DNA from: Mesotaenium endlicherianum
Lineage: Eukaryota
Assembly (NCBI GenBank): GCA_009602735.1
Contig: WELA01001243.1
Span: forward strand, 186,445-226,046
DNA: 39,602 nucleotides
Direction: 5' to 3'
The translations under genes were made by a program, and so were the position numbers. This document shows, in pieces, positions 609 to 32,839 of the stretch. How positions within the stretch are numbered: position 1 is the first letter of the stretch; every line of letters begins with the position of its first letter. The notes under the pieces are model-generated. The model ran no database searches, was not told the DNA's origin, and saw only the letters and a list, made by a program, of their open reading frames with translations.

Positions 609-850
609 TGATGCCTTAACTTGCTTGTGCTTGTGCTTGCTCCCTTCCTCCTGCAGAGGGCAAGGGGGGCATGTTCTGGCAAAAGGACAATCTGATTGTG
701 CGTGTGCTCGCTCTCTTGCTCCTCCTGCAGAAGGCCAGGGGGGGGGGATTTTCTGCACGAACGGCAGTCTGATGCTTTTGCTCGTCGTGCCTGTGCTTGC
801 TTGCTCCCTCCTGCAGAGGGCAAGGGCGGGATGTTCTGGATGAACGAGCG
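609..850 (+). repeat. Three tandem degenerate copies (~75-85 bp) of a 3' splice site plus exon start
   Basis: TGAT...pyrimidine tract...CCTCCTGCAG|A(G/A)GG with AG at 655-656, 729-730 and 815-816; copies read EGKGGMFW, EGQGGGIFC, EGKGGMFW. Confidence 0.75.
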
Positions 851-4714: not shown

Positions 4715-5380
4715 ATGGCTGCTGCTGTCCGGGGTAGTCACTTCATTGTACAAGCTCAGAACTTTCACTCCCTACCGTGTAAAAGTCTGGTCAGATCTTC
4801 TGTACAGCTAAATGCTGGGCAATATTATGCTTCTTTTCACACAGAGATTACATCTGCTTTCTTTGGCATAAGAAGCTTTAGATCAAGTCCTAGTGTATCG
4901 AATACGCTATGCAACGTATCAGGATGGTTGCATGAAGAGAAAAATGTGACAACATCATCACGCCAGAGCTATCGTAGTGAGAATGTACGAGGACAAACAG
5001 CAGCGAGGGCCACCTTAGCTTCCTCGGCTTCGTCACCTAAATATATCCCTTTGTACACAGTTGCGCTTGTGGCCTTTTCTCTAGTCAGAGTATTACTTAA
5101 AGTCTTCAGACAAGGTAGCCTCCAAGGGAAGCAGAGCAAGCAATTGCGGCAAGGAAAGGATCTGGCAAACGGAGGGAGTGGAGATGCAGACTGGCTCCCT
5201 CAAGAGCAAGAAAATATTGGGAAACAGCTCCTGCATCAGGGAGGGCTAGGATTGGCTCTGCTGACGGCTTCAATGCCAAATGCAGCCCGAGAGCACTTTA
5301 GTCCGCTAATCGCTGGGTTAAGAGCAAACCCTACATTTATGTCAGCCCTCATTGCTTGGACCCTTGCCCAAGTTCTCAAG
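4715..5380 (+). CDS. DUF212 (acid phosphatase/vanadium-dependent haloperoxidase-related, divergent PAP2) gene, coding exon 1; probable plastid transit peptide
   Basis: ATG 4715, Ser/Arg-rich N-terminus, ends NPTFMSALIAWTLAQVLK at donor AAG|GTATGC (5381). Confidence 0.8.
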
Positions 5381-6308
5381 GTATGCTCTTGCTGGAGCTG
5401 ACAAGCTGGCTTCTGAGTGAAGCAGCTCATGTAACCGGGTAGTTTAAGCGTAGAAGCTGCTTCTGGGATAGAATGGGCTAAGATCACTGAAGTTACTGTA
5501 CTGTCCATGATCACAGTGTGTTCTAGTATGTTTCTGTTACCTACACTCTTTAATAAAAAAGTAACCACTACTTGTAACAGTTCCTGCAGTAATTGTGAAA
5601 CGTAATTAGAGCCCTTTCTTTTCTCTATGTTGCTAGAATACACTGTTAGAGAACTAGTGACTGATCTGACAATGGAACCCGTTCGTATGTAGGGGCATTG
5701 GCCTATACAATAGCTGTCTCTTGGACGAGGCTGCAGTATGAGTGATTGTGATTCTCAAAGCTTGACTTAGGGCGTCCCATGTGCATCAGACCCTCTGTCA
5801 GATTCGTGAATAGTCGTAGTCTTCTTATTCTTCCTGTTCTACCTGAAGAGCAACTTCCTTGCTTTTTGGACTACCAAAGGCTTGCTGCTATGACCACCAG
5901 GGGGCATGCTCATCATTCACACAAGAGTTTGCCGCAGTATACTTTTTGCATGAAGGCTGGCGTGAAGGGGCAATCTGTATACAGGGCTTCACTTCATGGA
6001 AGACTCGGCATGTGCTTTGTTATATGGCAATGGCTTGCGACAATCCTTGCATGCAATTTCTTGCGTGCACTCAGTGTGTGCGTATATAAGTGTGTACATA
6101 TTCATGCATATGTTCAGCAGCTTGTAAATACTGACTTTATCTGGCTTGTACGTAGCTGCTTAATCCCTGGACTAAGGAAGCAAGCAATCTGTGCCTTGAG
6201 GCAATGGTGGAGGTAGCTTGAGTGCGCCCATCACAATTAGCAAGAGAGGCCTGCATTCATTGATCTGAAGGGCACCTCTCTGCATATCTCGTGCCGGTAA
6301 ATGTGCAG

Positions 6309-6530
6309 GTGTTCACGACATATGCTGTGGAGAGAAGGTGGGATCCCAAAATGCTGATGGGGTCAGGAGGCATGCCATCCTCCCACTCAGCCCTGTGCTT
6401 AGCGCTGACGACATCTGTGGCCCTCACTCATGGCGTGACTGGGCCCCTGTTCCCCGTCTGCTTGGGTTTCAGCCTCATAGTGATGTATGACGCGACAGGT
6501 GTGCGCTACCATGCTGGCATGCAGGCTGAG
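6309..6530 (+). CDS. DUF212 gene, coding exon 2
   Basis: Acceptor TGCAG|GTG, family motifs SGGMPSSHSA and VMYDATGVR, donor GAG|GTGAGA (6531); phase 0. Confidence 0.93.
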
Positions 6531-7398
6531 GTGAGAACGAACAGCCTCCTTCTCCTGAGACTTGTACAACCTTTTTAAGTCTGGGGAAAACGTGCAGCAC
6601 CTTCCGTCACTGCCCTACAGACCCCCTTGTCTCTTCGTGATGAGTGGGAATGGGGGCCGGCGTGGGGACGCTCCATAAGGAGCTGAATTTAAACATGCTT
6701 TGTGATAGGTGAGAAGATTGTGAGCAAGGTATTGAGCAGTGTAGTAAAGAGGTTGTCTGGGACATTCAGTGTGGTGGCTCCTCGAATGAACAAAGTGTCT
6801 TTGAATGGATTTGGGGTACTAGGTACCCGGAAGTAGAAGCCTTTGAGTCTTTTTGAGTTGAAGCATCTGTGCATCGTTTTGCAAGCGTCCACTTAGGGAG
6901 AGGGCCAACTCTCGGAAGTCGCAAGTTGGCCCTTCAAGGCATTTGAGACTCGTTCCAGCTATTCCGTTGCACATGTCACATATCTGACGATCCTGCTCAG
7001 TTCGATTGACTCCATTGCGCTCATTCAGCTGCAATCAACCCAGCTATGCATGTTGTCCCTGTCTTTGTTGCGAGTAACACACTTTATCCATGTTTTAGTT
7101 GCTCATGCGCTCCTATGTGTCCTACTTGAGCTTTCCAAGGGCAAGGAGTTCCCGCTTGGGTAATCTACTAGGTACTGCTCTTCAGCCTATTGAGGCAGTT
7201 GTGCAGACGGGTGGAGGCTACATGTCCACATGAGTCTTGCTCTTTGCAGTGTATCGGGTCTAGGTTCTGTCGTGCGTTGGGGTCGCGGCTTGAGAGGAGC
7301 TACATTGTGTTGTATAATGTGGCATGTGGTATTGCTGTTGAATGACTATAGGTTGCTTCCTTCATGCGCTAAGAGCGTCTTGTGCTTTTTCCTGCCAG

Positions 7399-7566
7399 GT
7401 GCTGAATGTAATTGTGCAAGACCTTTTCCAAGGCCATCCAGTGAGTCAGAAGAAGCTCAAGGAGCTGCTTGGCCATACCCCTCTTCAAGTCGGAGCAGGA
7501 GCTGTTCTTGGTGCCGTTGTGTCATACTTCTACAACACAAGCACTTTGGCCGCAGTGGTGGTATAA
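7399..7566 (+). CDS. DUF212 gene, coding exon 3 (total about 351 aa)
   Basis: Acceptor TTTTTCCTGCCAG|GTG, motif LKELLGHTPLQVGAGAVLG, TAA at 7564-7566. Confidence 0.92.
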   Translation: MLNVIVQDLFQGHPVSQKKLKELLGHTPLQVGAGAVLGAVVSYFYNTSTLAAVVV

Positions 7567-9741: not shown

Positions 9742-10460
9742 TGAAATGAATTGACTTACCAAATAGGCGATTAACAATTAATAAAGATCTTTATATCAGC
9801 AAGTAATCTTTATGGATTTTCCATTAACTGATTAAACGGCAAAAGGACAACACACTAGCAGTGAACAACACTCGTAAGTCATATGCGAGTAAACCAGCAT
9901 CAATCATGCAATCAGTAAACTCATACATAAGCAAGGTTAGAAGACAGTGCATATCAATGGCTTCTCGCCTTGGATTCAGATCTCTCTCAGTAAGCCATAC
10001 AAGAGAGTTGGCCTCGTTTCCGAATGCCAAACTCGAGAGCAATGCCTAGCATATGTACATGGAATGAGTTTAGTGTTCAACGGCCAGTGCGATGGCACCG
10101 CCTACCCGGGAGTTAACCACGTTGGTACGACCTCGGTTGACCAAATCCACCGCCATCTCCCATCATCCCGAATCGCCATCTATCATAGGGATGTTATCTG
10201 GCCATTCATCTAGCATACCACACTTACATGCATATCGAGGCAGTCGCTGCTACCGAGTACGGAAGTCAGCTGGCTGTCAAAGAATGTGTCAGAAAGCTGA
10301 CTTAAGCTGACTTCAGCCTGCTGCTTTCGGCTGAGTCATTAAACTGATATTAAATATAAAGTCCAGCAGACTGATTATTAACTAGAGTTCAGAAGGCTGA
10401 ACTTATTTAACTGTTATATTTAAATGAATATTATATCAACCAATATACTGATTCAATACA
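9742..10460 (-). repeat. 3' LTR of element B (719 bp)
   Basis: Reverse complement of the element A LTRs; abuts PPT. Confidence 0.93.
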
Positions 10461-10579: not shown

Positions 10580-12244
10580 TTAGGAGGGAGATACCCCTGG
10601 GGCCCCATGGTCAGGGGAGTCAGTCCTCCTCCTGTCTTGGGGTCTTCTGAAGCCTGTCAGACATGGAGGTTCCGTGTAGGGACCCGTCGGAGAACGCAGT
10701 AACTGTGCTGTTTCCTCCTGCACGATCTGAAACTGAATGGAGGCAGCCTTCTCCTGGGCATCCCTCAAACTGACTGGTACATATACCAGCATCCCAGAAG
10801 GATGTTGCATGACATGAGCTAAGGGTACATGCCCTCTCTGCGAGGGAGATGCCGGCAGGCCTCTGGCTATATCTCTAGCAGCCCTCCTGTCTGCCCTGTC
10901 TGACTGGGTCTCCTTGCCTGGAGATGGGGTCTGTCCTCTGGCAGTTCCCAGCCAAGTGATATCCTCCTCTTCAGCGAGTTGCTGCATGGCCAACCCCGTC
11001 TTCTCCCTTATAGGGGATGTGGCAGGCGTCAGGATCACGGCGGGGCTAGTGTCCTCCTCCTCGCCTTCCTCCTCGTCTTCCTCTGACTCCTCCTCCTCTC
11101 CGTCCCCGGGTTCCTCTGAGACTTCTGGGGTCTCTTCTGTCAGCTGCTCCAGCTCTTCCCGAGAAAAAGAATATCCTACTGACCTTCCCCTTTTGGGTGC
11201 TGGTGGGGGCTGCTGAGTCCGGACCGCATAGAGGTCCTTTTCCCCCTGCTTACTTGCCCATTTGGCATAAGCGTGCTTCCCTTTTGAGAATGACTCTCGG
11301 GCCCTGCTTCTGTCCCCCTGCATCTCTTGGCTCATGCAGTCTCTGACTCCATCCAATCTTGGGTCCCAAGCCGCAATGTGAGGGGGCAATACTATGTTCC
11401 CCTTTAGGTCTGTCAGGAAATCCTCATCCGTCGCCCTGTCATTCTGCTGGTCCCTCATGTTGATGGTCATCCACCGCCAATCGGTGGGCTTTTGGAAGAA
11501 GGCAGGGTCTGTCCTTTTAAGAGTACAAGGGTACCAGTGCCCTGCAAAGTCTAGCTGCCTGGTTTCCTTGGCCAAGAATTCCCAGCTCCTTCTCACCACC
11601 TCATTATACATGGCCTTGAACCTGTTATGGGATGTAGAGTCCTTAAAGCTGTCCGCGTCCATGGGGATCATCCTGATGACCCTATCTTCCCTCCAGATAC
11701 CAGGAATCGATACAGATCCTGCTTCATTCACCTGGGCCATTGCCTTGGCCTCTCTGACCGTATACCCTACCATCCTGGCGTAATCGTGGTAGAGGAGGAG
11801 CCCCGTGCTGACCTCTATATACTTGTCAAAGTTTTCGGATGCCTCCCCTTCCCTCTGGAAGATGTCCTTTTGTGACTCACTGCGACTTCTCTGAGCATAC
11901 TTGAAGGCCTCCTCCAGTAGATCGAAGCCCTTGCCCAGTACTGTGTAGCGGTAGCTGCTGATTCTCCTCTGCTCTTCTTCCGCCTGCTGCTTCCGCTTCT
12001 CCTCAGCTTACCTCTCCTCCTCTGCTTTCTTGGCCTCCTCTGCAGCTTTTCTGTCCAGTTCTTCCTGCCTCAGTCTGGCCTGTTTCTCCTCCTCCTTCTT
12101 CTTCTGTGCCTCCCGCTGTTGTTGGAGTCGTTGTGATTCCCGAGCGGAGATGGAGGATGATTCGATGTGTCCACGGAATTGCAAGTATTCTGCATGTGCC
12201 TCTTCCGCCCTTCTCTTCCTCTTGAGTTCCGACTTTTGAGTCAT
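10580..12244 (-). pseudogene. ORF3 accessory gene of element B (554 codons, one in-frame TAA at 12008-12010)
   Basis: ORF-track frames 12008-12253 and 10580-11773 are the same frame; shares YRYTV, YNEV.RRSWE, PTDWRWMT, LPPHIA.WDPRL, FSKGKHA, GHVPLA.V.QHP.GM with element A ORF3. Confidence 0.85.
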
Positions 12245-12528
12245 CCTGCTCAATCATAAACACAATGCAGTTAGTGAAGTCATGATATTTTGCCGATACT
12301 GAGTGCCCTTGATGAAGAGGAACGCGATCGAGAGAGTTCCGAGTGTGAAATACCTGGTGTGAGTGAATATAAGGGAAAATTGAGTTAGATAGAAAGTGAG
12401 TGTGAGCGCAGGTTGAGTGTGTAATATGGTTATCAGAGATTTTCCGACTGATCCCGAAACAGAATACCACTCCCCCCAACTTAATTTTAAAGGTGGGCTG
12501 CCTGTCACAACTGTCACTAACTGTCACA

Positions 12529-12592: not shown

Positions 12593-15174
12593 TTAGGGCG
12601 GTGCCCCAGCCGCCCCAAGGTGGAACCGTTCAACGCCCCTTTGGCATTGGTCAGCTGGCTTTTAAACTCCCAAGTGTCCCCAGAGGCATCGTAACCCTTC
12701 CATCGGATGAGGTACTTCATGACATATTTAGACGATCGACGGACCGAGCGAGCGTCTAAAATCTCATATTCCTCAGGGTCACCGTCCTGGACAGCAGGGA
12801 CCAGTCCCGGTTGGACAGGTAACCGACCTGTAAACAGTGTATCACCTTTGATGTATGGTTCCAAAAAGGAGACATTAAAGACCGGCTGACCCTTGTAGTC
12901 AATTTGTAAGCATTTTGACTGACACGACGCACTACCGAATATGTACCGACCCAGACAAGGCCAAGCTTTTCGGTGACCACACCAGGGTGGTACAGGTGCT
13001 GAGAATGCAGTTTAACTAAATCGTCCTTAGAAAATGTCAACTCCCGACGGTGTTGATTAGCGTATTTTTGTTGGTTTTCGTGGGCTCCCTGCAGGTTCTG
13101 CTGGACTTCTGACAAGGTGTCAGCAAACTCCTGAGTTAACTGGAGGGAGATCGGATTTTCAATCCCTTCAGGGTCAGTTAAAGATTCCCCCAGTCCATCA
13201 AAAGGAGACTTAGGGACTCTACCCAGGTTGAGTTCAAAAGGAGTCTTGCCCGTTGACGCGTGCACCGCACTGTTGACCGCAAACTGAATTTGAGGCAACA
13301 GGTCATCCCAATTATCTTGTTTTTGGTTAATATATGCTCTCAGCACATCCTGCAGAACTCGGTTAGTTCTTTCAGTCTGCCCATCAGTCTGAGGGTGGTT
13401 TGCTATGCTGAGCAGCTGTTTGACTCCCATTTACCCATTAAAGCTCTCCAGAACTTAGAGGTATATTTCGGATCTCGGTCTGAGATGATATTAGAGGGTA
13501 GCCCATGTTGGCATACTACATGGTTGTAGAACTGTCTCGCTGTTTCGAGTGCAGTTACTTTGACAGTTGTGGGGATGAAAATGACCATTTTTGTCAGTTT
13601 ATCCACGACTACCAGTATCGAATTATGCCCATTAGCCGTTCGTGGTAGTGTGATCACCCAGTCCATGGATATAGTTTCCCAGCCCCCGCTGAGATGGGCA
13701 GCGGTTGCAAGAAACCTCCCGGCGGTGTGTGCCTAGACTTATTTCTTTGACACTAATCACAGGACTTCACGTAATTCAAGACCTCCCGGGGCAACCCCTC
13801 CCAATGATAATGTTTTGCCAGTTTGCCAACAGTTTTGGCCTGCCCCAAATGCCCACCCAGTAAACTGTCATGGGCTTGACTCAATAAAAGGGACCTTATT
13901 TTCAAGTTATTAGGAATGACCAGCTTCAGCCTGCCTGAAGTGGTTTCAGTCACCCAGACCCCTCCCTTAAGCTTATACCCGAGTGCAGTAGCACGACACA
14001 CACCAGTAGTGGGGCTGGGCTCAAATGTTGGGTCAGAAAGGTAGGCTTTCCTAAGTTGTTCAAGGAAGGACTTTTTCACCTTTAGTGAAGTGAGTGCACA
14101 CAGGACTTTATCTACAGCATGCTGACTGAAGTTCCTTTCGTGCAAGTCAGGTCTTCTAGAGAGTGCATCAGCAGGATTCAACTTCCCTGGTTTGTAGTCG
14201 ATCTGGACTTGGAACTGCTCCAGCATCTGGCTCCAACGGTTCTCCCTCCTCGACTTTTTCTGAAAGTGGGTCAGAGCTATGATATGTAATCACCTTGAAG
14301 GACTTACCATGTGAGTATGCTTTCCACTGTTTGAGCACATGAATGATAGCTAGCAGCTCTTTATCATGCACTGAGTAATTAATCTCCGCTGAATTAAATT
14401 TCATAGACTTATACAACACAGGGTGCCACTCCTGCCTTACCTTATCATCCTTTGTGGTTTTGTCCGCAGGCTGCAACAAAATAGCACCCATGGCAAAGTC
14501 AGAGGCATCAGTGACTACCTGCACCGGTTTGCTGGGGTCATACACGGCTAGCACTGGGGCAGAACAAAGGGCATCTTTAAGGGTCTGGAAGGCAGCCTGC
14601 TGCTCTTCCCCCCACACATACCCTATGTCTTTCTTAGTAAGGTCAGTCAGTTTACCTTTGTGGAATAATTCCCCATAAATCTTCTGTAGTGATTAGCCAT
14701 CCCGAGGAAGGATCTAACTTCAGAGACAGACTGTGGTACTGGCCAGTCCCTTATGGTCTGAACTTTCTTAGGGTCCACACTGATGCCCTCTTTACTGACA
14801 ACGTGGCCTAAGAATTCTATACTCTTTTAAAAGTTATCACACTTGCTCATTTTAGCATATGACTGATTTCTTTTCAAAATGTCCACGACTGTCTTTAAGT
14901 GTTCAGCGTGCTGAGTCTTATCTTTAGAGAAAATTAAAATATCATGCAGGAAGACTTGCACAAATTTATCCAAATAAAACCGAAAAATGTCATTCATAGC
15001 ACCCATAAAGGTTGCGGGAGCATTAGTCAGTCCAAATGGCATCACGTTGAACTCGTAGTGTCCATAACGTGTGCGGAAGGCAGTCTTGTGTTCATCCCCT
15101 TCAGCAGTTCTGATTTGATGATAACCACTCTTGAGATCTATCTTACTGAACACCTTAGCACCAAATAGGGTATC
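12593..15174 (-). pseudogene. pol: Element B pol, 3' part (RT, RNase H, integrase, chromodomain), frameshifted
   Basis: Fragments nearly identical to element A pol ([41 protein letters not shown]); FLDD mutated to FLHD; several frame breaks. Confidence 0.93.
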
Positions 15175-15179
15175 AAGCT

Positions 15180-15951
15180 TGTAATGAATCAGTATATTAG
15201 TAGATAGAATATTCATTTAAATATAATAGTTAATTAAGTTCAGCCTGCTGAACTTTAGTTATTAGTCAGTTTGCTAGACTTTACTTAATAGTCAGTTTGC
15301 TGAACTTTACTTAATAGTCAGTCTGCTGGACTTTACATAAGTATCAGTTTACTGACTCAATGGAAAGCAGCAAGCTGAAAGTCCATATAAGTCAGCTTGC
15401 TGACACATTCTTTGACAGCAAGCTGACTTCCGTACTCGGTAGCAGCGAACTGCCTTGATATGCATCTAAGTGCGATATGCTAGATGAATAGCCAGATGAC
15501 ATCCCTATGATGGATGGCCATTCGGGATGATGGGAGATGGCGGTGGATTTGGTTAACCGAGGTCCTACCAACGTGGTTAACTCCCGGGTAGGCGGTGCCA
15601 TCGCACTGACCGTTGAACAGTAAACTCATTCCATGTACATATGCTAGGCATTGCTCTCGAGTTCGGCATTCGGAAACGAGGCCAACTCTCTTGTACAGCT
15701 TACTGAGAGAGATCTGAATCCAAGGCGAGAAGCCATTGATACGCACTGTCTTCTAACCTTGCTTATGTATGAGTTTACTGATTTGCATTATTGATGCTAG
15801 TTTACTCTCATTTGACTAACGAGTAGTATTCCCTGCTAGTGTATTGTCCTTTGCCGTTTAACGAGTTAACGGAAATACCATAAAGATTACTTGCTGATAT
15901 AAAGATCTTTATTAATTGTTAATCGCCTATTTGGTAAGTCGATTCATTTCA
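15180..15951 (+). repeat. 5' LTR of element A (772 bp)
   Basis: TGTAATGAATC...GATTCATTTCA with terminal inverted repeat; followed by PBS. Confidence 0.95.
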
Positions 15952-15952
15952 G

Positions 15953-15964
15953 TGGTATCGGAGC
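15953..15964 (+). promoter_or_regulatory. Primer-binding site, tRNA-iMet type
   Basis: TGGTATCGGAGC 1 nt after the LTR; one A>G difference (G:U compatible) from the plant TGGTATCAGAGC. Confidence 0.9.
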
Positions 15965-15985
15965 AGTTATCACAGTCGTCTTGGT

Positions 15986-17464
15986 ATGGTAAGGACAAGG
16001 TCTGAAACTAGCAACTCCCGAGACATGGAGAACCAGGATAACGAGAATGTCGAAAACCAGGCTCAAAGCCATGTAGCGGGAAACCGTACCTATTCGGAAG
16101 CAGTAGCGGATACTGCAGCTAGGGAGGCAGCAAATGAGGCAGCTGCTATTGCCTCAGTCGCAGCTCAGCAAGCTGAGGAGGAGATAGCCAGACTAGAAGC
16201 TGAACAAGTAGCAAAGGCCGCTGAAGATATACAAAGGAGGGAAGGACAGCCAGCTGACGAGCGCACTGTTGAAGAACTTATGGCATCAAGGGCCAATGTT
16301 CTGAACCCACCTCCTGCCGTACAACTCAATGTACCCCTAGGTCAAATACGTGACCGGCTGAATGCGGCAGGAATTGCTGCTGCAGGAGCAAGAGGGATTG
16401 TTGAGGACACTACTCAGCGAGTAGATGCCAATGCTGCTGCTGCATTTGCTAATCTACCACCCCAAAATGTAGACTTGGGAGCATTGTTCGTTCAGATGCA
16501 GTCGCAAATGGCGACCATGTATCAGTCCCAGCAGGAGGACAAAAGAATCATAATGTCCCTACTCCGGGACAGAGACCAACTGGGGTCTCACACCACTAGT
16601 GGTGGTGGCCGAGGGCCTAGTAAGCCCAAGCCGAAACCTCCCCAGGACTATGATCCTGAGGGAAACAGAAAATATTACCTGATCAAGTTTCTCGCGGATG
16701 TTGAGCAGTGGCTGGAGAACTACCCAGAACTGCAAGATTACGAGAAGGTCAGGCACACCGGTGCGCTACTGAAAGGCAGTGCCGCAGACTGGTGGCTTTA
16801 CTGGAAGGAAGAGCGTAAGGCTCGGCAACTCGGTGACCCTACGTGGGTAGAGTTTGTCGAGAAGTTGCATGAGAAGTTTGATGTCATCAACCAGCAGGAG
16901 AAAGCTATCTATGCGATGATCTCCCTGACACTGAAGCAGACCACTTCAGTTGCTGAGTTTGCTCAAAAGTTCCAAGAGAACATGATGAAGCAGCCTGATT
17001 TGCCAGAACGGTATAGGATAGCATACTTCAGGTATGGCTTGAAATCCGAGGTCTCTGGTCATTTTGCTGAGAAAAAGTATGAGAAACTGGCTGACTTGAT
17101 CCAGGATGCTGACGCCTGGGATCAGCAGCAGTTCAATCACAAGCGCCAGAGTAACGCTTTGGTGTCTAAGATTGTCAAAAAGCCCCACGGTTCCTACAAT
17201 GCAGTTGAAGGAGACCAGGCTGAGGATAATCAGGGTGATGAATATGAGTATGAGTACAATGCTATTCAGTCTAGAGGTAGAGGTGGTCCCTCTCGAGGTG
17301 GCTATGGAAGGGGTGGTGGTAGGACTAAGCCGAGACCAGCCTCAGCAAAATCTACTTGCTACCATTGTCAGCAGAAAGGCCACTACAGAGAACAGTGTCC
17401 GGTCAAGCACCTGCCTAAGGTCGAGAGAAAAGACCAGCCTTTAAAAGACAGCAACAGTCAGTAA
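15986..17464 (+). CDS. gag: Gag (492 aa) of element A
   Basis: Capsid-like [10 protein letters not shown]...[22 protein letters not shown] repeats, CCHC knuckle [14 protein letters not shown]. Confidence 0.95.
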
Positions 17465-17487
17465 TCCAGTCTACTGACTGTGAGGAT
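17440..17487 (+). promoter_or_regulatory. Predicted -1 ribosomal frameshift signal joining gag and pol
   Basis: T TTA AAA heptamer in gag frame (17440-17446), 7-nt spacer, perfect 10-bp stem ACAGTCAGTA/TACTGACTGT; the -1 frame is open into pol. Confidence 0.8.
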
Positions 17488-20400
17488 GCTAGAGATAGTG
17501 AGTCGTCACTAGCTGCCCTCGTAGCAGGTATTATGGGTCCTGCTGAACTGGATTCACTATGCATGCCTGACAACCAGATAAAGGAGACCATCAGCAATAT
17601 AGACGTCCAGAGAGTGCACACTCTGGATGCTCTTGTTCCACCTGATGTCCAACATTTCTTTGCTACGTCAGGAGAACAATGCGAAAGTCAGGAAAAGACA
17701 GTCCCCCCTATCCTACTGCATTGCATGATTGCAGGTAGGAAGGTGAGGGCATTTGTTGACGGAGGGGCGTCACATACTTTTATCCACAAGGACTTAGTTA
17801 AGCGGCTAAGGCTGCCTACTGTCACCCAAGGGAATAGAAAAATATTCCTTGGAGATGCCTCAAGTATCCCGGGAGGAGTTATAACCAAGCCTATTGAGGT
17901 CCAGTTAGGTTCTGGCATTGCAGTTCTAACTGAAACGCTTACATTTGAGGTACTCAACACTGGCTTTTATGATCTCGTGCTAGGCAGGTCCTGGCTTAAT
18001 AGACATCAAGCTGAAGTGTGTTGGAGCAGAGGTACAGTTAAAGTGAGAGGAGCCAGTGATGGGCAGACTGACTTGGCACCCACCAGTGCTCTTCCTCTTG
18101 TCCTGTGTGGATGGCAAATGAAGGAAAAGAAGAGGCTTCCAGAAGGATGCAAGTTGCTGAATGCAATGGAGTTCGTCAAAAGCTGGAACCAGAAGGAAGA
18201 CAGAATGTTCTGTCTGCTGCTAAGAGAGGTACCTCCTCAACCTGAAGAAGTGGTTGAGAAAAAGGTACACCCTCCGGAACACCCTACTGCTGCAAACATT
18301 GTTGCTCAGTACACGGATGTGTTTAATATGCCTCCAGGACTACCCCCTAAGCGGGAAGTAGATCATAGGATTGATTTATTACCTGGTAGCCAGCCACCCT
18401 GGCAACGCACGTATGGCTTGTCTTATTTGGAGAGTGAGGAGTTGAAAACACAGATTGCAGAGCTGGAGGAAAATGGTTACATTTCTCCCAGTAAATCACC
18501 GTACGGCGCACCTATCCTATTTGTTAAGAAAAAGGATGGCAGTATGCGGATGTGTGTGGATTACAGAGCCCTGAACAGAATTACAGTAAAGAACAAGTAT
18601 GCTTTACCCAGAATCGAGGACTTGCTTGATACCCTGTCTGGCGCTAAGGTGTTCAGTAAGATAGATCTCAAGAGTGGTTATCATCAAATCAGAATTGCTG
18701 AGGGGGATGAACACAAGACTGCTTTCCGCACACGTTATGGACACTATGAGTTCAACGTGATGCCATTTGGACTGACTAATGCTCCTGCTACCTTTATGGG
18801 TGCTATGAATGACATTTTCAGACCTTATTTGGATAAGTTTGTGCAAGTTTTCCTGGATGATATTTTAATTTTCTCTAAAGATGAAGCTCAGCACACTGAA
18901 CACTTAAAGAAAGTGCTGGACACTCTGCGGAAAAATCACTTGTATGCTAAAATGAGCAAGTGTGATTTCTTTAAGGAAAGTATTGAATTCTTAGGCCACG
19001 TTGTCAGTAAAGAGGGCATCAGTGTGGATCCTAAGAAAGTCCAGACCATAAGGGACTGGCCAGTACCACAGTCTGTCTCTGAAGTTAGATCCTTCCTCGG
19101 GTTGGCTAACTACTATAGGAGATTTATTGAGAATTATTCCACAAAGGCCAGTAAACTGACTGACCTTACTAAGAAAGACATCGGGTATGTGTGGGGGGAA
19201 GAGCAGCAGGCTGCCTTCCAGACCCTTAAAGATGCCCTTTGTTCTGCCCCAGTGCTAGCCGTGTATGACCCCAGCAAACCGGTGCAGGTGGTTACTGATG
19301 CCTCTGATTTTGCCATGGGTGCTATTTTGTTGCAGCCTGCTGACAAAACCACAAAGGATGGTAAGGTACGGCAGGAGTGGCATCCTGTGTTGTATGAGTC
19401 TATGAAATTTAATCCAGCGGAGATTAATTACTCAGTGCATGATAAAGAGCTGCTAGCTATCATTCATGTACTCAAACAGTGGAGAGCATACTTACATGGT
19501 AAAGCTTTTAAGGTGATTACAGATCATCTAGCTCTGACCCACTTTCAGAAGAAGTCCAAGCTGTCGAGGAGGGAGAACCGCTGGAGCCAGATGCTGGAGC
19601 AGTTCCAAGTCCAGATCGACTACAAACCAGGGAAGTTGAATCCTGCTGATGCACTCTCTAGAAGACCTGACTTGCAAGAAAGGAACTTTAGTCAGCATGC
19701 TGTAGATAAAGTCCTGTGTGCACTCACTTCACTAAAGGTGAAAAAGTCCTTCCTTGAACAACTTAGGAAAGCCTACCTTTCTGACCCAACATTTGAGCCC
19801 AGCCCCACTACTGGTATGTGTCGTGCTACCGCACTCGGGTATAAGCTCAAGGGAGGGGTCTGGGTGACTGAAACCACTTCAGGCAGGCTGAAGCTGGTCA
19901 TTCCTAATAATTTGGAAATAAGGTCTCTCTTACTGAGTCAAGCTCATGACAGTCTCCTGGGTGGACATTTGGGGCAGGCCAAAACTGTTGGCAAACTGGC
20001 AAAACATTATCATTGGGAGGGGTTACCCCGGGAGGTCTTGAAATATGTCAAGTCCTGTGACCAGTGTCAGAGAAATAAGTCTCGGCACACACCACCCGGA
20101 GGTCTCTTGCAACCGCTACCCATCCCAGCGGGACGCTGGGAAACTATATCCATGGACTGGGTGGTCTCACTACCAAGAACTGCCAACGGGCATGATTCAA
20201 TACTGGTAGTCGTGGATAAACTGACAAAAATGGTCATTTTTATCCCCACAACTGTCAAAGTGACTGCACTCGAAACAGCGAGACAGTTTTACAACCATGT
20301 AGTATGCCAACATGGGCTCCCTTCTAATATCATCTCAGACAGAGACTCAAAATTCACCTCTAAGTTCTGGAGAGCTTTAATGGGGTTAATGGGAGTCAAA

Positions 20401-21249
20401 CAGCTGCTCAGCACAGCAAACCACCCTCAGACTGATGGGCAGACTGAAAGAACTAACCGAGTTCTGCAGGAGGTGCTGAGAGCATATATTAACCAAAAAC
20501 AAGATAATTGGGATGACCTGTTGCCTCAAATTCAGTTTGCGGTCAACAGTGCGGTGCACGCGTCAACGGGCAAAACTCCTTTTGAACTCAGCCTGGGTAG
20601 AGTCCCTAAGTCTCCTCTAGATGTGCTAGGGGAATCTTTAACTCACCCTGAAGGGATTGACAACCCGGTCTCCCTCCAGTTAACTCAGGAGTTTGCTGAC
20701 ACCCTGTCAGAAGTCCAACGAAACTTGCACACGGCCCAAGAAAACCAACAAAAATACGCTAATCAACACCGTCGGGAACTGACATTTTCCAAGGGGGATT
20801 TAGTCAAACTGCATTCTCAGCACCTGTACCTCCCTGGTGTGGTCAAGAAAAAGCTTGGCCCTGTCTGGGTCGGTCCATATTCGGTGGTCCGTCGTGTCGG
20901 TCAGAATGCTTACAAACTGAACATGTCAGCTGAATACAAGGGGCACCCGGTCTTTAATGTCTCCTTCCTGGAACCGTACATCAAAGGTGATACACTGTTC
21001 ACAGGTCGGTTCCCTGTCCAACCGGGACCGGTCCCCGCTGTCCGGGACGGCGACCCTGAGGAATATGAGGTCGATGAGATTTTAGACGCTCGCTCGGTCC
21101 GTCGATCGTCTAAATATGTCATGAAATACCTCATTCGATGGAAGGGTTACGATGCCTCTGGGGACACTTGGGAGTTTAAGGACCACTTGACCAATGCCAA
21201 AGGGGCGTTGACACGGTTCCACCTTCGGGCCGCTGGAGTCCCTCCATAA
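17440..21249 (+). CDS. pol: Pol of element A: protease, RT, RNase H, integrase (HHCC, DDE, GPY/F), C-terminal chromodomain (first Met 17533)
   Basis: [64 protein letters not shown]...[17 protein letters not shown]...[16 protein letters not shown]. Confidence 0.97.
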
Positions 21250-21276
21250 CTGTCATTTCAGTTGACACGGGAAGGT

Positions 21277-21312
21277 GACAGGCGGTCCTGTCTCCATTTA
21301 AGTTGGAGGGGA
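21277..21312 (+). promoter_or_regulatory. Internal hairpin + PPT-like module after pol in element A
   Basis: GACAGG-CGGT-CCTGTC (21277-21292) then AAGTTGGAGGGGA (21300-21312), same core as the terminal PPT. Confidence 0.65.
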
Positions 21313-21485
21313 AAATATATGACAGTTAGTGAGCGAGAGCGATAAAAACACACTCATACGTTTATGTGTAGCGCATCGCAACTACGTCAACTTTTAGCAA
21401 TCATCCTGTAAGGTAAACAGCAGCGAAGCCACTATACTAAATACTAACATACTTCCTGCAATCCCTATGACAAAGGTCCATATCC

Positions 21486-21519
21486 TACTAACTTGTGCCC
21501 TGGTTACATGTGCAGGATG
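21486..21519 (+). promoter_or_regulatory. Branch point and 3' splice site immediately upstream of ORF3 ATG
   Basis: TACTAAC (21486-21492) ... TGTGCAG|G ATG (AG 21514-21515); equivalent CACTAAC...GAGCAG|G ATG in element B (12276-12242). Confidence 0.7.
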
Positions 21520-23193
21520 GCGCCCACCACACAAAAGGAGGACAGAAAGCGCAAGGCAGAAGAAGCCAGGAGGACAATGGAGCAATACCAGAAGGAGCTG
21601 GCGGCGACGTCCCTCACCAGGAGAGAACAAGAAAGGGTCCGCAAACAACAAGAGGCGGCAGAAGAGGCACAGAGGAAGAAGGATCAGGAAGCGGAAAACC
21701 TCAGGAAGGCTGAGGAGGAGAGACAGAAGAAACAGCAAGAAGAAGCGGCAGCGGCAGAAGAGGAGAAAAGAAAAAAGATTGAAGCGGACAGACAGAAGAG
21801 CTTGGCCACTTACAGGTATACTGTGGTGGGTGGCCAAAACTTCGATAACCTGAAGGAAGCATTGCTGGCAGCCCAGGAGATCAACAGGCTGGAACAGACA
21901 ACACTGCTACAGAAGGAAGGAGCTACAGCACTGGACAGGTACATCGAGACACACACCGGCGTGGTCCTTTACGAAGATTATGCTAAGATGGTGGGCTATA
22001 CAGCAGAGCAGGCCCGGTATCTCGCAGATGATTCAGAGGACAAGCCGGTCCCCATACCGGGAATAGTGGGAGATCAGAGACTCATCCGGATGGTGAGCAT
22101 GCGGCCCGATAGCTTTAAGGATACGGTATTCTACCTCACACTCCTGCCAGCTTACAATGAAGTTGAGAGAAGGAGCTGGGAGTACTTGGCCAGGGAAGCA
22201 GGACAGCAGATGTTCTCTCCCCACTGGTTCCCGTGTAAACTGAGGAAGGCTGAGCACGGACCCCAGTACTACCAGCAGCCAACAGACTGGAGGTGGATGA
22301 CCGTCACAAATAAGAAGCAGGAGTGTGACCGAGCCCAACCGGATGACTTCCACTATGGCCTAGACGGCTATCTCATCCTACCACCTCACATTGCCCCTTG
22401 GGACCCCAGGCTGAATGGATGCCTGAGCAATATGAATGCAGAGACCAAGGAACATAGGAGGAGGGGAAGAGACTACTTCTCTAAGGGAAAGCATGCCTTT
22501 GTCAAATGGGCAAAGAATGCAGGCCGGATAGATATCAGTAGGCTGAAGGCCAAGCAACCTCCAGCGCGCCCTAAGAAAGGGAGGTCGGTAGACTACTCCA
22601 TGTCTACTAGGGAGCAGGACGACTTAGTGGACGAGACCCCTACTCTCTCCGAGGAGGAGGATGAGGAGGATGAGGAAGAAGAACAAGGCAGAGGAGAAGC
22701 ATCAGCAGCAGGTACTCAGGATACCCAGGGACAGGCAGTGGCACTTCCTAAAGAACCACGATCAGGTGTGTGGAATGTGATCCCCGTTATGGCGACAACT
22801 GGACCCCGCGCTCGCTCCCCCAGCCCACCTGCCCAAGCAGGGGAAGAAGCTGATCTGACTGTACTGGGCAGCAGACACAGGCAGAAATCCCCAGAGGACA
22901 GGGGTGCCAGAAGAGGGACACGCGGGTGGGCCAGAGGTATGCCAGCCTCCCCCTCCGCTCAGGGGCATGTACCTCTAGCCAATGTATTTCAGCATCCTAC
23001 TGGAATGCCTGTCTATGTGGGAATCAACACCCAAATAGTTGAAGAGCAGGCCACCATCCTCCGTTCTCCTCGAGGGCCAACTTTAGAGCAAACAGGGTTC
23101 TTTAGAAGGCCAGCTGACAGACCTAGAGGGCTGTCCAGATCTAGGTCCAGATCTCCGTCCCCTGATCCTGAAGCCCCAGGAACCACCCCTTAA
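21517..23193 (+). CDS. ORF3: uncharacterised 558-aa accessory protein (N-terminal charged coiled coil, aromatic-rich central domain, acidic tract, SP/RS-rich tail)
   Basis: Intact ORF between pol and 3' LTR; homologous copies in elements B and D with conserved motif blocks; no hydrophobic segment seen. Confidence 0.9.
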   Translation: MAPTTQKEDRKRKAEEARRTMEQYQKELAATSLTRREQERVRKQQEAAEEAQRKKDQEAENLRKAEEERQKKQQEEAAAAEEEKRKKIEADRQKSLATYRYTVVGGQNFDNLKEALLAAQEINRLEQTTLLQKEGATALDRYIETHTGVVLYEDYAKMVGYTAEQARYLADDSEDKPVPIPGIVGDQRLIRMVSMRPDSFKDTVFYLTLLPAYNEVERRSWEYLAREAGQQMFSPHWFPCKLRKAEHGPQYYQQPTDWRWMTVTNKKQECDRAQPDDFHYGLDGYLILPPHIAPWDPRLNGCLSNMNAETKEHRRRGRDYFSKGKHAFVKWAKNAGRIDISRLKAKQPPARPKKGRSVDYSMSTREQDDLVDETPTLSEEEDEEDEEEEQGRGEASAAGTQDTQGQAVALPKEPRSGVWNVIPVMATTGPRARSPSPPAQAGEEADLTVLGSRHRQKSPEDRGARRGTRGWARGMPASPSAQGHVPLANVFQHPTGMPVYVGINTQIVEEQATILRSPRGPTLEQTGFFRRPADRPRGLSRSRSRSPSPDPEAPGTTP

Positions 23194-23270
23194 GGTGACA
23201 GGCTGAAAAGATAGTCAGTAAGGGAGGCTGGTCAGGGTCAGTTTCTTTATTTAAAGCTTTTGCAGTTTAA

Positions 23271-23306
23271 TGTTGTCGAGGCGACAACAAGTTAAGTTGG
23301 AGGGAT
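23271..23306 (+). promoter_or_regulatory. Terminal hairpin + PPT of element A
   Basis: TGTTGTCG-AGG-CGACAACA (23271-23289) then AAGTTGGAGGGAT (23294-23306) abutting LTR TGTA. Confidence 0.88.
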
Positions 23307-24025
23307 TGTAATGAATCAGTATATTAGTGGATATAATATTCATTTAAATATAATAGTTAATTAAGTTCAGCCTGCTGAACTTTAGTTAATAATCAGTCTG
23401 CTGGACTTTACATAATTATCAGTTTAATGACTCGGCCGAAAGCAGCAGGCTGAAGTCAACTTAAGTCAGCTTGCTGACACATTCTTTGACAGCCAGCTGA
23501 CTTCCGTACTCGGTAGCAGCGAACTGCCTTGATATGCATCTAAGTGCGATATGCTAGATGAATGGCCAGATGACATCCCTATGATGGATGGCTATTCGGG
23601 ATGATGGGAGATGGCGGTGGATTTGGTTAACCGAGGTCCTACCAACGTGGTTAACTCCCGGGTAGGCGGTGCCATCGCACTGACCGTTGAACAGTAAACT
23701 CATTCCATGTACATATGCTAGGCATTGCTCTCGAGTTCGGCATTCGGAAACGAGGCCAACTCTCTTGTACAGCTTACTGAGAGAGATCTGAATCCAAGGC
23801 GAGAAGCCATTGATACGCACTGTCTTCTAACCTTGCTTATGTATGAGTTTACTGATTTGCATTATTGATGCTAGTTTACTCTCATTTGACTGACGAGTAG
23901 TATTCCCTGCTAGTGTATTGTCCTTTGCCGTTTAACGAGTTAACGGAAATACCATAAAGATTACTTGCTGATATAAAGATTTTTATTAATTGTTAATCGC
24001 CTATTTGGTAAGTCGATTCATTTCA
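23307..24025 (+). repeat. 3' LTR of element A (719 bp)
   Basis: Direct repeat of 15180-15951, followed by TSD AAGCT. Confidence 0.95.
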
Positions 24026-24030
24026 AAGCT

Positions 24031-25213
24031 AGTCCTTGATTCTCGGTAAAGCATACTTGTTCTTTACCGTACTTCTGTTCAGGGCTCTGTAATCCGCACA
24101 CATCCGCATACTGCCATCCTTTTTCCTAACAAATAGGATGGATGCGCCGTAAGGTGATTTACTGAGAGAAATATAACCATTTTCCTCAAGCTCTGCAATC
24201 TGTGTTTTCAACTCCTCGCTCTCCACATAAGACAAGCCATAAGTGCGTTGCCAGGGTGGCTGACTACCAGGTAATTAATCAATCCTATGATCTACTTCCC
24301 GCTTAGGGGGTAGTCCTGGAGGCATATTAAATACATCCGTGTATCGAGCAACAATTTTCGCAGCAGTAGGGTGCTCCGGAGGGCTTACCTTTTTCTCCAC
24401 CACTTCTTCAGGTTGAGGAGGTACCTCTCTTAGCAGCAGACATACTATTCTGTCTTCCTTCTGGTTCCAGCTAATGACGAACTCCATTGCATTCAGCAAC
24501 TTGCATCCTTCTGGAAGCCTCTTGTTTTCCTTCATTTGCCATCCACACAGGACAAGAGGAAGAGCACTGGTGGGTGCCAAGTCAGTCTGCCCATCACTGG
24601 CTCCTCTCACTTTAACTGTACCTCTGCTCCAACACACTTCAGCTTGATGTCTATTAAGCCAGGACCTGCCTAGCACGAGATCATAAAAGCCAGTGTTGAG
24701 TACCTCAAATGTAAGCGTTTCAGTTAGAACTGCAATGCCAGAACCTAACTGGACCTCAATAGGCTTGGTTATAACTCCTCCCGGGATACTTGAGGCATCT
24801 CCAAGGAATATTTTTCTATTCCCTTGGGTGACAGTAGGCAGCCTTAGCCGCTTAACTAAGTCCCTGTGGATAAAAGTATGTGACAACCCTCCGTCCACAA
24901 ATTCCCTCACCTTCCTACCTGCAATCATGCAATGCAGTAGGATAGGGGGGACTGTCTTTTCCTGACTTTCGCATTGTTCTCCTGACGTAGCAAAGAAATG
25001 TTGGACATCAGGTGGAACAAGAGCATCCAGAGTGTGCACTCTCTGGATGTCTATATTGCTGATGGTCTCCTTTATCTGGTTGTCAGGCATGCATGGTGAA
25101 TCCAGTTCAGCAGGACCCATAACACCTGATACGAGGGCAGCTAGTGACGACTCACTATCTCTAGCATCCTCACAGTTAGTAGATTGGATTATTGACTATT
25201 GCTGTCTTTTAAA
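24031..25213 (-). pseudogene. pol: Element B pol, 5' part (protease and RT N-terminus)
   Basis: ORFs 24275-25120 and 24029-24235 match element A pol; YALPRIKD continues across element A into LDTLFGAK; premature stops. Confidence 0.92.
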
Positions 25214-26585
25214 GGCTGGTCTTTTCCCTCGACTTTTGGGAGGTGCTTGTCTGGACACTGCTCTTTGAAGTGACCTGGCTGCTGGCAATGGAAGCAAATC
25301 GATTTTGCTGAGGCTGGTCTCGGCTTAGTCCTACCACCACCTCTTCCATAGCCGCCTCGAGGAAAACCACCTCTACCTCTAGACTGTATGGCATTATACT
25401 CATGCTCATACCCATCACCCTGATCATCCTCAACCTGGTCTCCTTCAATTGCATCGTAGGAAACGTGGGGCTTTTTGACAATCTTAGACACCAAAGCATT
25501 ATTCTGGCGCTTGTGATTGAACTGCTCTTGATCCCAGGCGTCAGCATCCTGGATCAAGTCAGCCAGTTTCTCATACTTTTTCACAGCGAAATGACCAGAG
25601 ACTTCGGATTTCAAGCCATACCTGAAGTATGCTATCCTATACCGTTCTGGCAAGTCATCGCATTGATAGCTTTCTCCTGCTGGTTGATGACATCAAGCTT
25701 CTCATGCAACTTCTCGACAAACTCTACCCACGTAGGGTCACCGAGTTGCCGAGCCTTACGCTCTTCCTTCCAGTAAAGCCACCAGTCTACGGCACTGCCT
25801 TTCAGTAGCGCACCGGTGTGCTTGACCTTCTCGTAATCTTGCAGTTCTGGGTAGTTCTCCAGCCACTGCTCAACATCCGCGAGAAACTTGATCAGGTAAT
25901 ATTTTCTGTTTCCCTCAGGATCATAGTCCTGGGGAGGTTTCGGCTTGGGCTTACTAGGCCCTCGGCCACCACCACTAGTGGTTTGAGATCCCAGTTGGTC
26001 TCTGTCCCGCAGTAGGGACATTATGATTCTTTGGTCCTCTCGTTGGGACTGATACATGGTCGCCATTTGCGACTGCATTTGAACGAACAATGCTCCGAAG
26101 TCTACACTCTGGGGTGGTAGTCTAGCAAATGCAGCAGCAGCATTGGCATCTACTCGCTGAGTAGTGTCCTCAACAGTCCCTCTCGCTCCTGCAGCAGCAA
26201 TTCCTGCCGCATTCAGCCGGTCACGTATTTGACCTAGGGGTACATTGAGTTGTACAGCTGGAGGTGGGTTCAGAACATTGGCCCTTGTTGCCATAAGTTC
26301 TTCAACAGTGCGCTCGTCAGCTGGCTGTCCTTCCCTCCTTTCTGTATCTTCAGCAGCCTTTGCTAATTTTTCAGCTAATTTGGCTCTCTCCTCCTCAGCT
26401 TGCTGTGCTACGACTGCGGCAATAGCAGCTGCCTCATCTGCAGCCTCTCTAGCTGCAGTATTTGCCACTGCTTCAGAATAGGTACGGGTTCCCGCTACAT
26501 GGCTTTCCGCCTAGTTTTCGACATTCTCGTTATCCTGGTTCTCCATGTCTCGGGAGTTGCTAGTTTGAGACCTTGTCCTTACCAT
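25189..26585 (-). pseudogene. gag: Element B gag, broken by an ~79-bp frameshifting deletion near 25655
   Basis: ORFs 25632-26468 and 25189-25653 match element A gag; segment equivalent to ~16920-16999 is missing, with short TGA microhomology. Confidence 0.92.
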
Positions 26586-26619: not shown

Positions 26620-27367
26620 TGAAATGAATCGACTTACCAAATAGGCGATTAACAATTAATAAAAATCTTTGTATCAGCAAGTAATCTTTACGGATTTTTC
26701 GTTAACTGATTAAACGGCAAAAGAACAATACACTAGCAGTGAATAATACTCGTAAGTCATATGCGAGTAGACCAGCATCAATCATGCAATCAATAAATTC
26801 ATACATAAGCAAGGTTAGAAGACAGTGCGTATCAATGGCTTCTCGCCTTGGATTCAGATCTCTCTCAGTAAGCTGTACAAGAGAGTTGGCCTCGTTTCCG
26901 AATGCCAAACTCGAGAGCAATGCCTAGCATATGTACATGGAATGAGTTTACTGTTCAACGGCCAGTGCGATGGCATTGCCTACCCGAGAGTTAACCACGT
27001 TGGTAGGACCTCGATTAACCAAATCCACCGCCATCTCCCATCATCCCGAATCGCCATCTATCATACGGATGTCATCTGGCCATTCATCTAGCATACCACA
27101 CTTACATGCATATCGAGGCAGTCGCTGCTACCGAGTACGGAAGTCAGCTGGCTGTCAAAGAATGTGNCAGCAAGCTGACTTAAGCTGACTTCAGCCTGCT
27201 GCTTTGGGCTGAGTCATTAAACTGATATTAAATATAAAGTCCAGCAGACTGATTATTAACTAGAGTTCAGCAGGCTGAACTTATTTAACTAGNGTTCAGC
27301 AGGCTGAACTTATTTGACTGTTATATTTAAATGAATATTATATCAACCAGTATACTGATTCATTACA
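26620..27367 (-). repeat. 5' LTR of element B (748 bp; one extra 29-bp U3 repeat; two N bases)
   Basis: Direct repeat of 9742-10460; ends CTGATTCATTACA on + strand. Confidence 0.93.
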
Positions 27368-31646: not shown

Positions 31647-32839
31647 TGAAATAAATCGACTTACCAATATGAGAGGGGGATGCTGGCTGACCTCTGGCTG
31701 CCTTCTTGGCAGCCCTTCTGTCAGCTCTGTCTGATTGAGTCTCACCTCCTGGAATGGGACTCCTCCTAATAAAACTCCCCAGCCACTGGAGATCTGGGTC
31801 TCTTGGTGGGCTAGTATCCCCAAGCTGCTGCAGGGCTGCATGTGCAAAGGCCCTTCCAGTGGGGGATGTAGCGGGGGTTTGTGCCTCAACAGGACTAGAC
31901 TCCTCTCCGGCGCCTTCCTCTTCTTTGTCCTCCTGTTCCTCTGAGACTTCTGGAGTCTCTTTGGTCATCTCCTCCACCCGTTCCCGAGAAAAAGAGTATC
32001 CCACTGACCTCCCCCTTTTGGGTGCAAGTGGGGGTTGGTGGGTCCTGACCGCATACAGGTCTTTCTCCCCTTGCTTACTAGCCCATTTGGCATAAGCATG
32101 CTTCCCCTTAAAACAAGAATCTCTAGCCCTGGTCCTATCCTCCTGTGTCTCCTGACTCATGCAGTCCCTGACTCCATCCAGTTGTGGATCCCATGCTGCA
32201 ATGTGAGGTGGCAACACTATCTTACCCTGCAAATCTGCCAGGAAATCGTCTTCCTCAGCTCTGTCACTATGCTAGTCCTTCATGGTGATGGTCATCCAGC
32301 GCCAATCAGTGGGCTGTAGAACAAAAGCAGGATCCGTCCTCTTCAAAGTACAGGGGTACCAGTGACCTGAGAAATCCAGCTGGCTGGACTCCCTTGCCAG
32401 AACTCCCAGCTTCTTCTCTCCACCTCGTTATACATGGCCTTGAACCAATTGTGGGAAGTGGCATCCTTGAAGATGTCTGTATGCATAGAGATCAACCTGA
32501 TGACCCTGTTTGTGTCCCAAATCCCAGGTATTGGCACCGTTTCAGATTCACCTATCTGGGCCAATGCTTTGGCCTCCCGGATCGTATACACCACCATCCT
32601 GGCATAGTCATGGTACAGTAGAAGCCCCGTGCTGACTTCTATGTACTTGTCAAAACCTTGGGCTATCTCCCCTTCCCGCTGCAGTATGTCCCTCTGTGAT
32701 TCACTTCGGTTCCTCTGGGCGTACTTGAAGGCCTCCTCCAAAAGATCAAAGCCCTTTCCCATCACCGTGTAGCGGTAGCTTTTGATTCTCCTATGTTCCT
32801 CCTCTGCCTGCTGCTTCTGTCTCTCCTCAGCAAACCTTT
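31647..32839 (-). pseudogene. Remnant D: third ORF3 copy (B-like), fused to the last ~21 nt of a family LTR and cut by element C
   Basis: ORFs 32343-32765 and 31603-32232 closely match element B ORF3; TGAAATAAATCGACTTACCAA at 31647-31667 equals the LTR terminus. Confidence 0.85.

Follow-up and report, generated by a model that had tools for sequence, protein, structure and literature searches.

Predicted splice signals before a third open reading frame in a chromovirus of Mesotaenium endlicherianum

The window analysed here (39,602 nt; contig WELA01001243.1 of assembly GCA_009602735.1, forward-strand positions 186,445 to 226,046) contains an LTR retrotransposon with a third open reading frame, ORF3, which starts 267 nt behind the pol stop codon. 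The question raised by the locus was how this frame is expressed. A sequence-only reading had proposed that a splice acceptor directly before the ORF3 ATG gives rise to a spliced subgenomic mRNA.

The element (element A; 15180-24025, plus strand) was an intact Ty3/gypsy chromovirus with the order LTR-gag-pol-ORF3-LTR. The hallmarks of a chromovirus, TG...CA LTRs, a primer binding site (PBS), a polypurine tract and a 5-bp target duplication, were all present, and pol gave Pfam matches in the order PR-RT-RH-INT together with a C-terminal chromodomain (Chromo E 2e-8). The 5' and 3' LTRs were 97.5% identical (18 substitutions in 720 aligned nt). The PBS carries a motif that we take to be of the tRNA-Met type. 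The features of element A were as follows.

15180..15951, plus strand: 5' LTR (TG...CA), with the target-site duplication AAGCT at 15175-15179 and 24026-24030
15931..15939, plus strand: candidate major donor TTG/GTAAGT, intron start 15934, located 5' of the PBS and 18 nt from the end of the LTR
15953..15964, plus strand: PBS motif TGGTATCGGAGC
15986..17464, plus strand: gag, 492 aa, with Ty3 capsid and zinc knuckle
17419..21249, plus strand: pol, in the -1 frame and overlapping gag, with protease, RT, RNase H, integrase, SH3 and chromodomain
21298..21315, plus strand: first polypurine-tract-like motif, just 3' of pol, sharing its 13-nt core with the second tract listed below
21410..21418, plus strand: local donor-like site AAG/GTAAAC, intron from 21413, 103 nt
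21486..21492, plus strand: predicted branch point TACTAAC, branch A at 21491
21507..21516, plus strand: predicted acceptor ATGTGCAG/G, with AG at 21514-21515, G at 21516 and the ATG at 21517
21517..23193, plus strand: ORF3, 558 aa
23292..23304, plus strand: second polypurine tract, directly 5' of the 3' LTR
23307..24025, plus strand: 3' LTR

Within the gag/pol overlap, a T TTA AAA heptamer at 17440-17446 (plus strand) was in the correct phase for -1 ribosomal frameshifting. The 5' part of the LTR (15228-15380, and 27311-27270 in the second family member described below) comprised tandem units of 26-29 nt whose copy number varied between LTRs, with a gain of 52 nt in the 5' LTR of A and of 29 nt in that of the second element. 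A possible 73-nt leader intron was also seen in the LTR (15767-15839, plus strand; GTATGA...CTAAC...TGCTAG), the removal of which would delete three upstream ATGs. Its possible branch reads CTGAC in the 3' LTR of A and CTTAC in the second element, and 9 of the 43 differences between the two 3' LTRs fall inside it (10% of the length). Hairpins before polypurine tracts were dropped as evidence; one of six folded better than its shuffles at z < -2.

In a quick RT tree, whose rows carry organism names rather than clade labels and include no named Tcn1 reference, element A was placed with metagenomic and Closterium elements (SH-aLRT 89) and outside an 18-row seed-plant group (99), so that its RT did not fall inside the seed-plant chromovirus group as that of a Tekay element would. 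Overlapping gag and pol frames (15986-17464 and 17419-21249) were shared with Tcn1; self-priming without a tRNA PBS, the other Tcn1 trait considered, was not, as a Met-type PBS is present. Among Tcn1 members, 83% are given as self-priming, 5% as having a tRNA-Met PBS and 60% as having overlapping gag/pol frames (PMC6317226). Aromatic residues were read by eye in the chromodomain of A, and section 9 of the same source limits such residues, within plants, to non-seed groups. Together with the plant-type Met PBS and the position of the RT outside the seed plants, these residues point to a non-seed green plant as host. Measured against the REXdb descriptions there, element A resembles Tcn1 in its overlapping frames and shares the 5-bp target duplication and the chromodomain, and its Met-type PBS is like that of most Tekay and Galadriel elements. 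For chromoviruses, the REXdb listing gives 3' forward extra ORFs for Tekay only (18%, seed plants), with none entered for Tcn1, Chlamyvir, Galadriel, Reina or CRM (PMC6317226). PMC2864245 names an 'add. ORF' in the legend to a figure of Tcn1-related elements. The present arrangement was not found described for a chromovirus in the literature searched, and the per-element table of REXdb may list rare cases.

Element A sits inserted in pol of a second family member, element B (minus strand, 27367-9742), a copy organised in the same way but broken at several places. A third copy of ORF3 was found further along the window. The corresponding features were as follows.

26620..27367, minus strand: 5' LTR of B, with the same donor as A at 26640-26632
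24031..26585, minus strand: gag and 5' part of pol of B, interrupted by the insertion of A, with a gag frame break near 25656
12595..15174, minus strand: 3' part of pol of B, in several frames (broken)
12348..12390, minus strand: spacer of B, with CTAAC at 12388, a pyrimidine tract and CAG/GTATTT, readable as acceptor (12354) and local donor (12353)
12245..12276, minus strand: predicted branch point CACTAAC and acceptor GAGCAG/G of B
10580..12244, minus strand: ORF3 of B, 48% identical to ORF3 of A (protein), with an in-frame stop at 12010
9742..10460, minus strand: 3' LTR of B
31647..32837, minus strand: third ORF3 allele, a 5'-truncated broken fragment, 79% identical to B (nt), acceptor region missing

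The third allele abuts the end of a family LTR, running straight into its last ~22 nt. Element C (pol 36913-33901) was considered as its owner and rejected, since C has its own tract and an LTR start at ~33770. Element C itself (36913-33760, minus strand) is a distant, decayed chromovirus with a tract directly behind pol, which is 42% identical to that of A (aa); in the quick tree it grouped, on a long branch, with Haematococcus elements. Host genes with GT-AG introns are present in the window, for example a DUF212 gene at ~4700-7560. A GC-rich open frame of 820 codons at 696-3158 (plus strand) gave no Pfam match and is probably a large host exon. Stretches resembling a tRNA B-box (by eye) at 33355-33320 and 29340-29325 (minus strand) are possibly SINE relics, and a 147-nt direct repeat (29138/29474) adjoins the latter.

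Elements A and B had ~92% of the backbone in common, with a dS of 0.06-0.17 for gag and pol and LTRs 92-94% identical. For ORF3, at 48% protein identity, the dS of the core was ~2.9, near synonymous saturation (the whole-gene value was saturated), and between B and the third allele dS was 0.9-1.1. In all five finite comparisons of alleles dN/dS was 0.11-0.20, and ORF3 is therefore a coding gene under purifying selection. Similarity between A and B stopped ~20 nt past the first polypurine motif (~21332) and resumed at 23267-23271, just before the second tract. The cassette of A (21298-23304, plus strand) is situated between two tracts with the same 13-nt core; its counterpart in B is at 12543-10463 (minus strand), where another tract-like motif stands at 12484-12470. 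The first tract might serve as a central tract for priming of plus-strand DNA, or might be where an older LTR once began. In contigs of run X8, a B-type spacer was joined at 21311, and a cassette 3' end unlike that of A or B joined the common backbone at 23267, which points to a further allele in the population. From the A/B breakpoints and these joins we infer that the cassette is exchangeable and that one recombining backbone carries several old alleles of it.

Every motif coordinate given in the sequence-only reading was right when the sequence was rechecked, and so was the claim of near-identical spacing: from the branch A at 21491 to the end of the AG at 21515 is 24 nt in A, and on the minus strand of B, with CACTAAC at 12276-12270, the branch A at 12271, the AG ending at 12246 and the ATG at 12244, it is 25 nt. 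The acceptor of B is a tandem GAG-CAG. The accompanying claim that the pol-ORF3 spacers of A and B do not align had to be narrowed, since the first ~83 nt (21250-21332) do align; it holds for the rest (local-alignment shuffle P of 0.29 for the last 50 nt and 0.77 for the middle). An acceptor motif in front of the third ORF was conserved in both of the alleles in which the 5' end is present, A and B being the only two independent ones, and with a core dS of ~2.9 for ORF3 these two have been apart long enough to randomise unselected sequence.

The arrangement was rare elsewhere in the window. Out of 1385 ATGs, 23 follow YAG/G and four of these also have CTRAC upstream; two of the four are the ORF3 starts, which leaves a background of 2 in 1383 other ATGs. 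When the cassette-specific spacers were subjected to 20,000 dinucleotide shuffles, a YAG no more than 3 nt from the ATG with CTRAC 18-35 nt upstream, a pattern that had been defined after the motif was seen, occurred in 1.8% (A) and 0.8% (B) of shuffles (P 0.018 and 0.008). A stricter first-AG rule gave 0.9% (A) and 0.6% (B); B itself fails this rule because of its tandem GAG-CAG, and the rule was then relaxed. Over 9 nt the acceptor of A, ATGTGCAG/G, is identical to that of an intron in the host DUF212 gene (intron end at 6308); the borders of this intron are backed by continuity of the Pfam profile (positions 22-94, then 96-126). The acceptor motif before ORF3 is real and beyond chance, and on this evidence the predicted acceptor is probably functional. 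A second TACTAAC in the spacer of A (21442-21448, plus strand) is followed by a pyrimidine run with no YAG.

Candidate donors for this acceptor were then compared. The donor TTG/GTAAGT had been said to occur in every LTR of the family, and it was indeed found in four of four family LTRs, as well as at 31667 in a fifth LTR end that is truncated; its presence in each says little, because the LTRs are 92-97.5% identical. On the sense strand of A (8.8 kb) GTAAGT occurred once per LTR only, and it is the only perfect donor hexamer of the element. In shuffled LTRs, GTRAGT was found within the last 60 nt in 3% and within the last 230 nt in 12%. Related chromoviruses were represented by 80 loci, as a rule with an RT identity of 50-67%, and of the 19 with a Met-type PBS one had GTRAGT within 60 nt of its LTR end. 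The exonic side of the LTR donor (TTG) is poor, and the junction would put T at -3 of the ORF3 ATG; with the local donors, or in unspliced RNA, A stands at this position. The local donors AAG/GTAAAC (21413) and CAG/GTATTT (12353) do yield introns of 103 and 108 nt as had been noted. Both donor options named in that reading are thus present, but they are only two of 23 donor-like sites in the 6.3 kb upstream of the acceptor of A (about 1 per 275 nt); the backbone being young, B retains 17 of the 23. The gag donor ATG/GTAAGG (15989) is unlikely for ORF3, since an ATG would then stay 4 nt upstream and out of frame. The local donor of B is also a good acceptor, which makes a two-step route via 12353/12354 possible in that element; the spacer of A is without an equally good upstream acceptor. 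The LTR donor would be the single most likely partner of the acceptor.

The explanation that we favour, tentatively and at a little short of even chances, is that ORF3 is translated from a spliced subgenomic mRNA, most likely by joining of the LTR donor at 15933 to 21516. Transcription would start in the LTR, and some transcripts would lose an intron of 5,582 nt that contains the PBS, gag, pol and all spacer ATGs, so that the ORF3 ATG would become the first codon of exon 2. The product would be a soluble, probably nuclear accessory factor of the RNA-export or anti-silencing type and not an envelope protein. A spliced RNA without a PBS would not be reverse transcribed from a tRNA primer, and so no intronless copies would arise from it; the persistence of the splice signals and the evolutionary stability of the arrangement would thereby be explained. 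ATGs upstream of ORF3 include an out-of-frame, overlapping one in each element, at 21467 (A) and 12257 (B), within 50 nt of the start, and these would hinder an unspliced ORF3 message. That ORF3 is expressed separately from gag-pol, as had been proposed, is soundly argued from a selected gene, its start 267 nt past the pol stop and the upstream ATGs.

Unlikely, yet narrowly the best of the alternatives, is that the cassette forms a small gene of its own, with an internal promoter behind the first tract, a short 5' exon, a leader intron of 103 or 108 nt and the same acceptor; the promoter would possibly be a relic of an older LTR. In keeping with this, AG/GTA is found at 103 and 108 nt in the two elements (shuffle P 0.087 for A and 0.058 for B), joining at the local donor gives A at -3, the spacer begins like an LTR with a polypurine tract followed by TG, and in element C and several relatives a true tract lies at most ~200 nt behind pol. 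However, neither local donor has a G at +5, the two do not align with each other, and donor-like sites are common, at about 1 per 275 nt. A short sense intron also removes no replication signal and would be expected to be lost by reverse transcription of the spliced RNA, whereas both alleles keep it.

It is unlikely that no splicing takes place, with CAGG-ATG being a start-codon context, ACTAAC a coincidence or a promoter element, and ORF3 translated from an unspliced internal transcript; GTAAGT in the LTR would then be a chance occurrence or a U1-binding site only, controlling polyadenylation. Foamy virus LTRs do provide a case in which U1 binding without splicing controls the choice of polyA site (PMC3694450), the start codon of unspliced ORF3 RNA has A at -3, and no junction was seen, with ORF3 at zero depth in three polyA runs. 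Against this, given the AG, CTRAC at 18-35 nt was found in just 6.4% (A) and 3.7% (B) of shuffles, while the real spacing is 24 and 25 nt, and out-of-frame ATGs are found within 50 nt of the start in both A and B. Joining of the acceptor to a donor in gag or pol, such as CAG/GTATGG at 17032, a good phase-2 donor that B has as well, would place the first ~349 gag codons in frame with ORF3, as in the gag/ORF fusion that forms CERV of Cer1 (PMC10309623), but is very improbable, as one of the five gag donors is expected in phase 2 by chance, the 17032 site is constrained by coding, and both alleles keep their own ATG after the acceptor although the N-termini otherwise diverge.

Three polyA raw-read runs, which carry the same species label as the best-matching DNA run, were mapped on 15179-23305 at 90% likeness, with 6-12% of each run being read. 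A total of 752 reads mapped (228, 325 and 199 per run). Over 21412-23037 of the A-type cassette the depth was zero in all three runs, and as ORF3 was uncovered the splice at 21515/21516 is neither shown nor refuted by these reads. Reads on the LTR were mostly 90-99% alike and ran into unrelated flanks at the LTR end, so they derive from other loci. The X8 contigs, whose even depth suggests DNA, span the acceptor unbroken and say nothing on splicing. The only joint listed in the polyA reads was unrelated to ORF3: at 19335-19495, a 159-nt skip with CT..AC ends was seen in three RNA reads of run X23, equivalent to an antisense GT-AG intron in pol of some copy. At 15721-16262 and 20057-21411 the first mate was mostly on the plus strand, which means antisense transcription in most stranded libraries; the RNA reads there come from other, 90-99% similar copies.

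The protein encoded by ORF3 comprises a charged N-terminus with basic clusters, a conserved core (~aa 95-365), an acidic tract and a low-complexity tail. Basic clusters were present in both A and B (RKRK/KRKRR and PKKGR/PKRGR). The N-termini of the two proteins diverge, and even so each keeps its own ATG right after the acceptor. No transmembrane segment was found (highest 19-residue hydropathy 0.73 in A and 0.92 in B), and both proteins have hydrophilic N-termini, with no signal peptide and 0 N-glycosylation motifs. A HMMER search of 1.84 billion proteins gave no credible homologue; the sole match was set aside as an artefact of scores summed over tandem repeats (pairwise E 0.23). A word-based search also returned no homologue (7992 candidates scored, lengths 306-977), the best Atlas value was 0.84, below the lead threshold, and nothing in Pfam scored above cut-off. 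Among metagenomes none of 212 pattern matches, and among related pol loci none of 80, yielded an ORF3 homologue. The predicted structure had a pLDDT of 36.5. With no transmembrane segment and no homologue, ORF3 is not an env. The analogy with env drawn in the sequence-only reading holds for the mode of expression only, since the protein is without signal-peptide and transmembrane features. A nuclear accessory role may be suggested from composition and by analogy with CERV.

Spliced extra ORFs are already known from Athila, Bagy-2, errantiviruses and Cer1, and the splicing mechanism itself would be unsurprising to a specialist. The env-like ORF2 of Athila in Arabidopsis is expressed from a spliced subgenomic mRNA (PMC7197481), and a spliced third-ORF RNA of barley Bagy-2 is cited in PMC7264820. 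Neither of these belongs to the chromoviruses, and transmembrane domains are present in some of their ORFs; element A is a chromovirus in which the splice is predicted and ORF3 is without a transmembrane segment or a Pfam or sequence homologue. For the Drosophila errantiviruses gypsy, Tirant and Kuruka, splicing of env is described, with an acceptor conserved across diverged elements and a donor that is not obvious, much as seen here (PMC13669377); their third ORF is a true envelope glycoprotein, unlike ORF3 of A. CERV of Cer1 in C. elegans is a five-exon gag fusion with a demonstrated RNA-export role (PMC10309623), whereas ORF3 keeps its own ATG, gave no homology and has a function proposed by inference. 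Foamy viruses likewise have a strong donor inside the LTR, and hence in both LTRs, that may also control polyadenylation (PMC3694450). These are vertebrate retroviruses in which the donor is upstream of the polyA signal; in A the donor, assigned to U5 in the sequence-only reading, may lie in U5 or in R, depending on where the start and polyA sites are. In bdelloid elements a spliced third-ORF RNA is stated to be typical (PMC5408684), and for Diaspora it has been proposed that an extra ORF was lost when mis-spliced RNA was packaged (PMC1142308).

What is new is the lineage, the orphan protein and the divergent cassette alleles between two polypurine tracts. It is a speculative and rather unlikely extension that a chromovirus outside the seed plants behaves like a complex retrovirus, with an LTR donor leading, perhaps in two steps, to a PBS-less mRNA for a new nuclear accessory protein (RNA export or anti-silencing), encoded on an exchangeable cassette with at least three alleles far older than the backbone, as would result from an arms race with the host.

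What the extra ORFs of plant LTR retrotransposons do has long been an open question (PMC7264820, PMC6317226). Few of them are documented as spliced, and the cases compared here are all non-chromoviruses. Element A is young and intact and supplies exact coordinates for the predicted junction. The orphan gene that it carries is not env, is subject to purifying selection and belongs to a chromovirus lineage with no such ORF in the REXdb listing; the divergent, exchangeable ORF3 alleles make this gene a candidate factor in conflict with the host.
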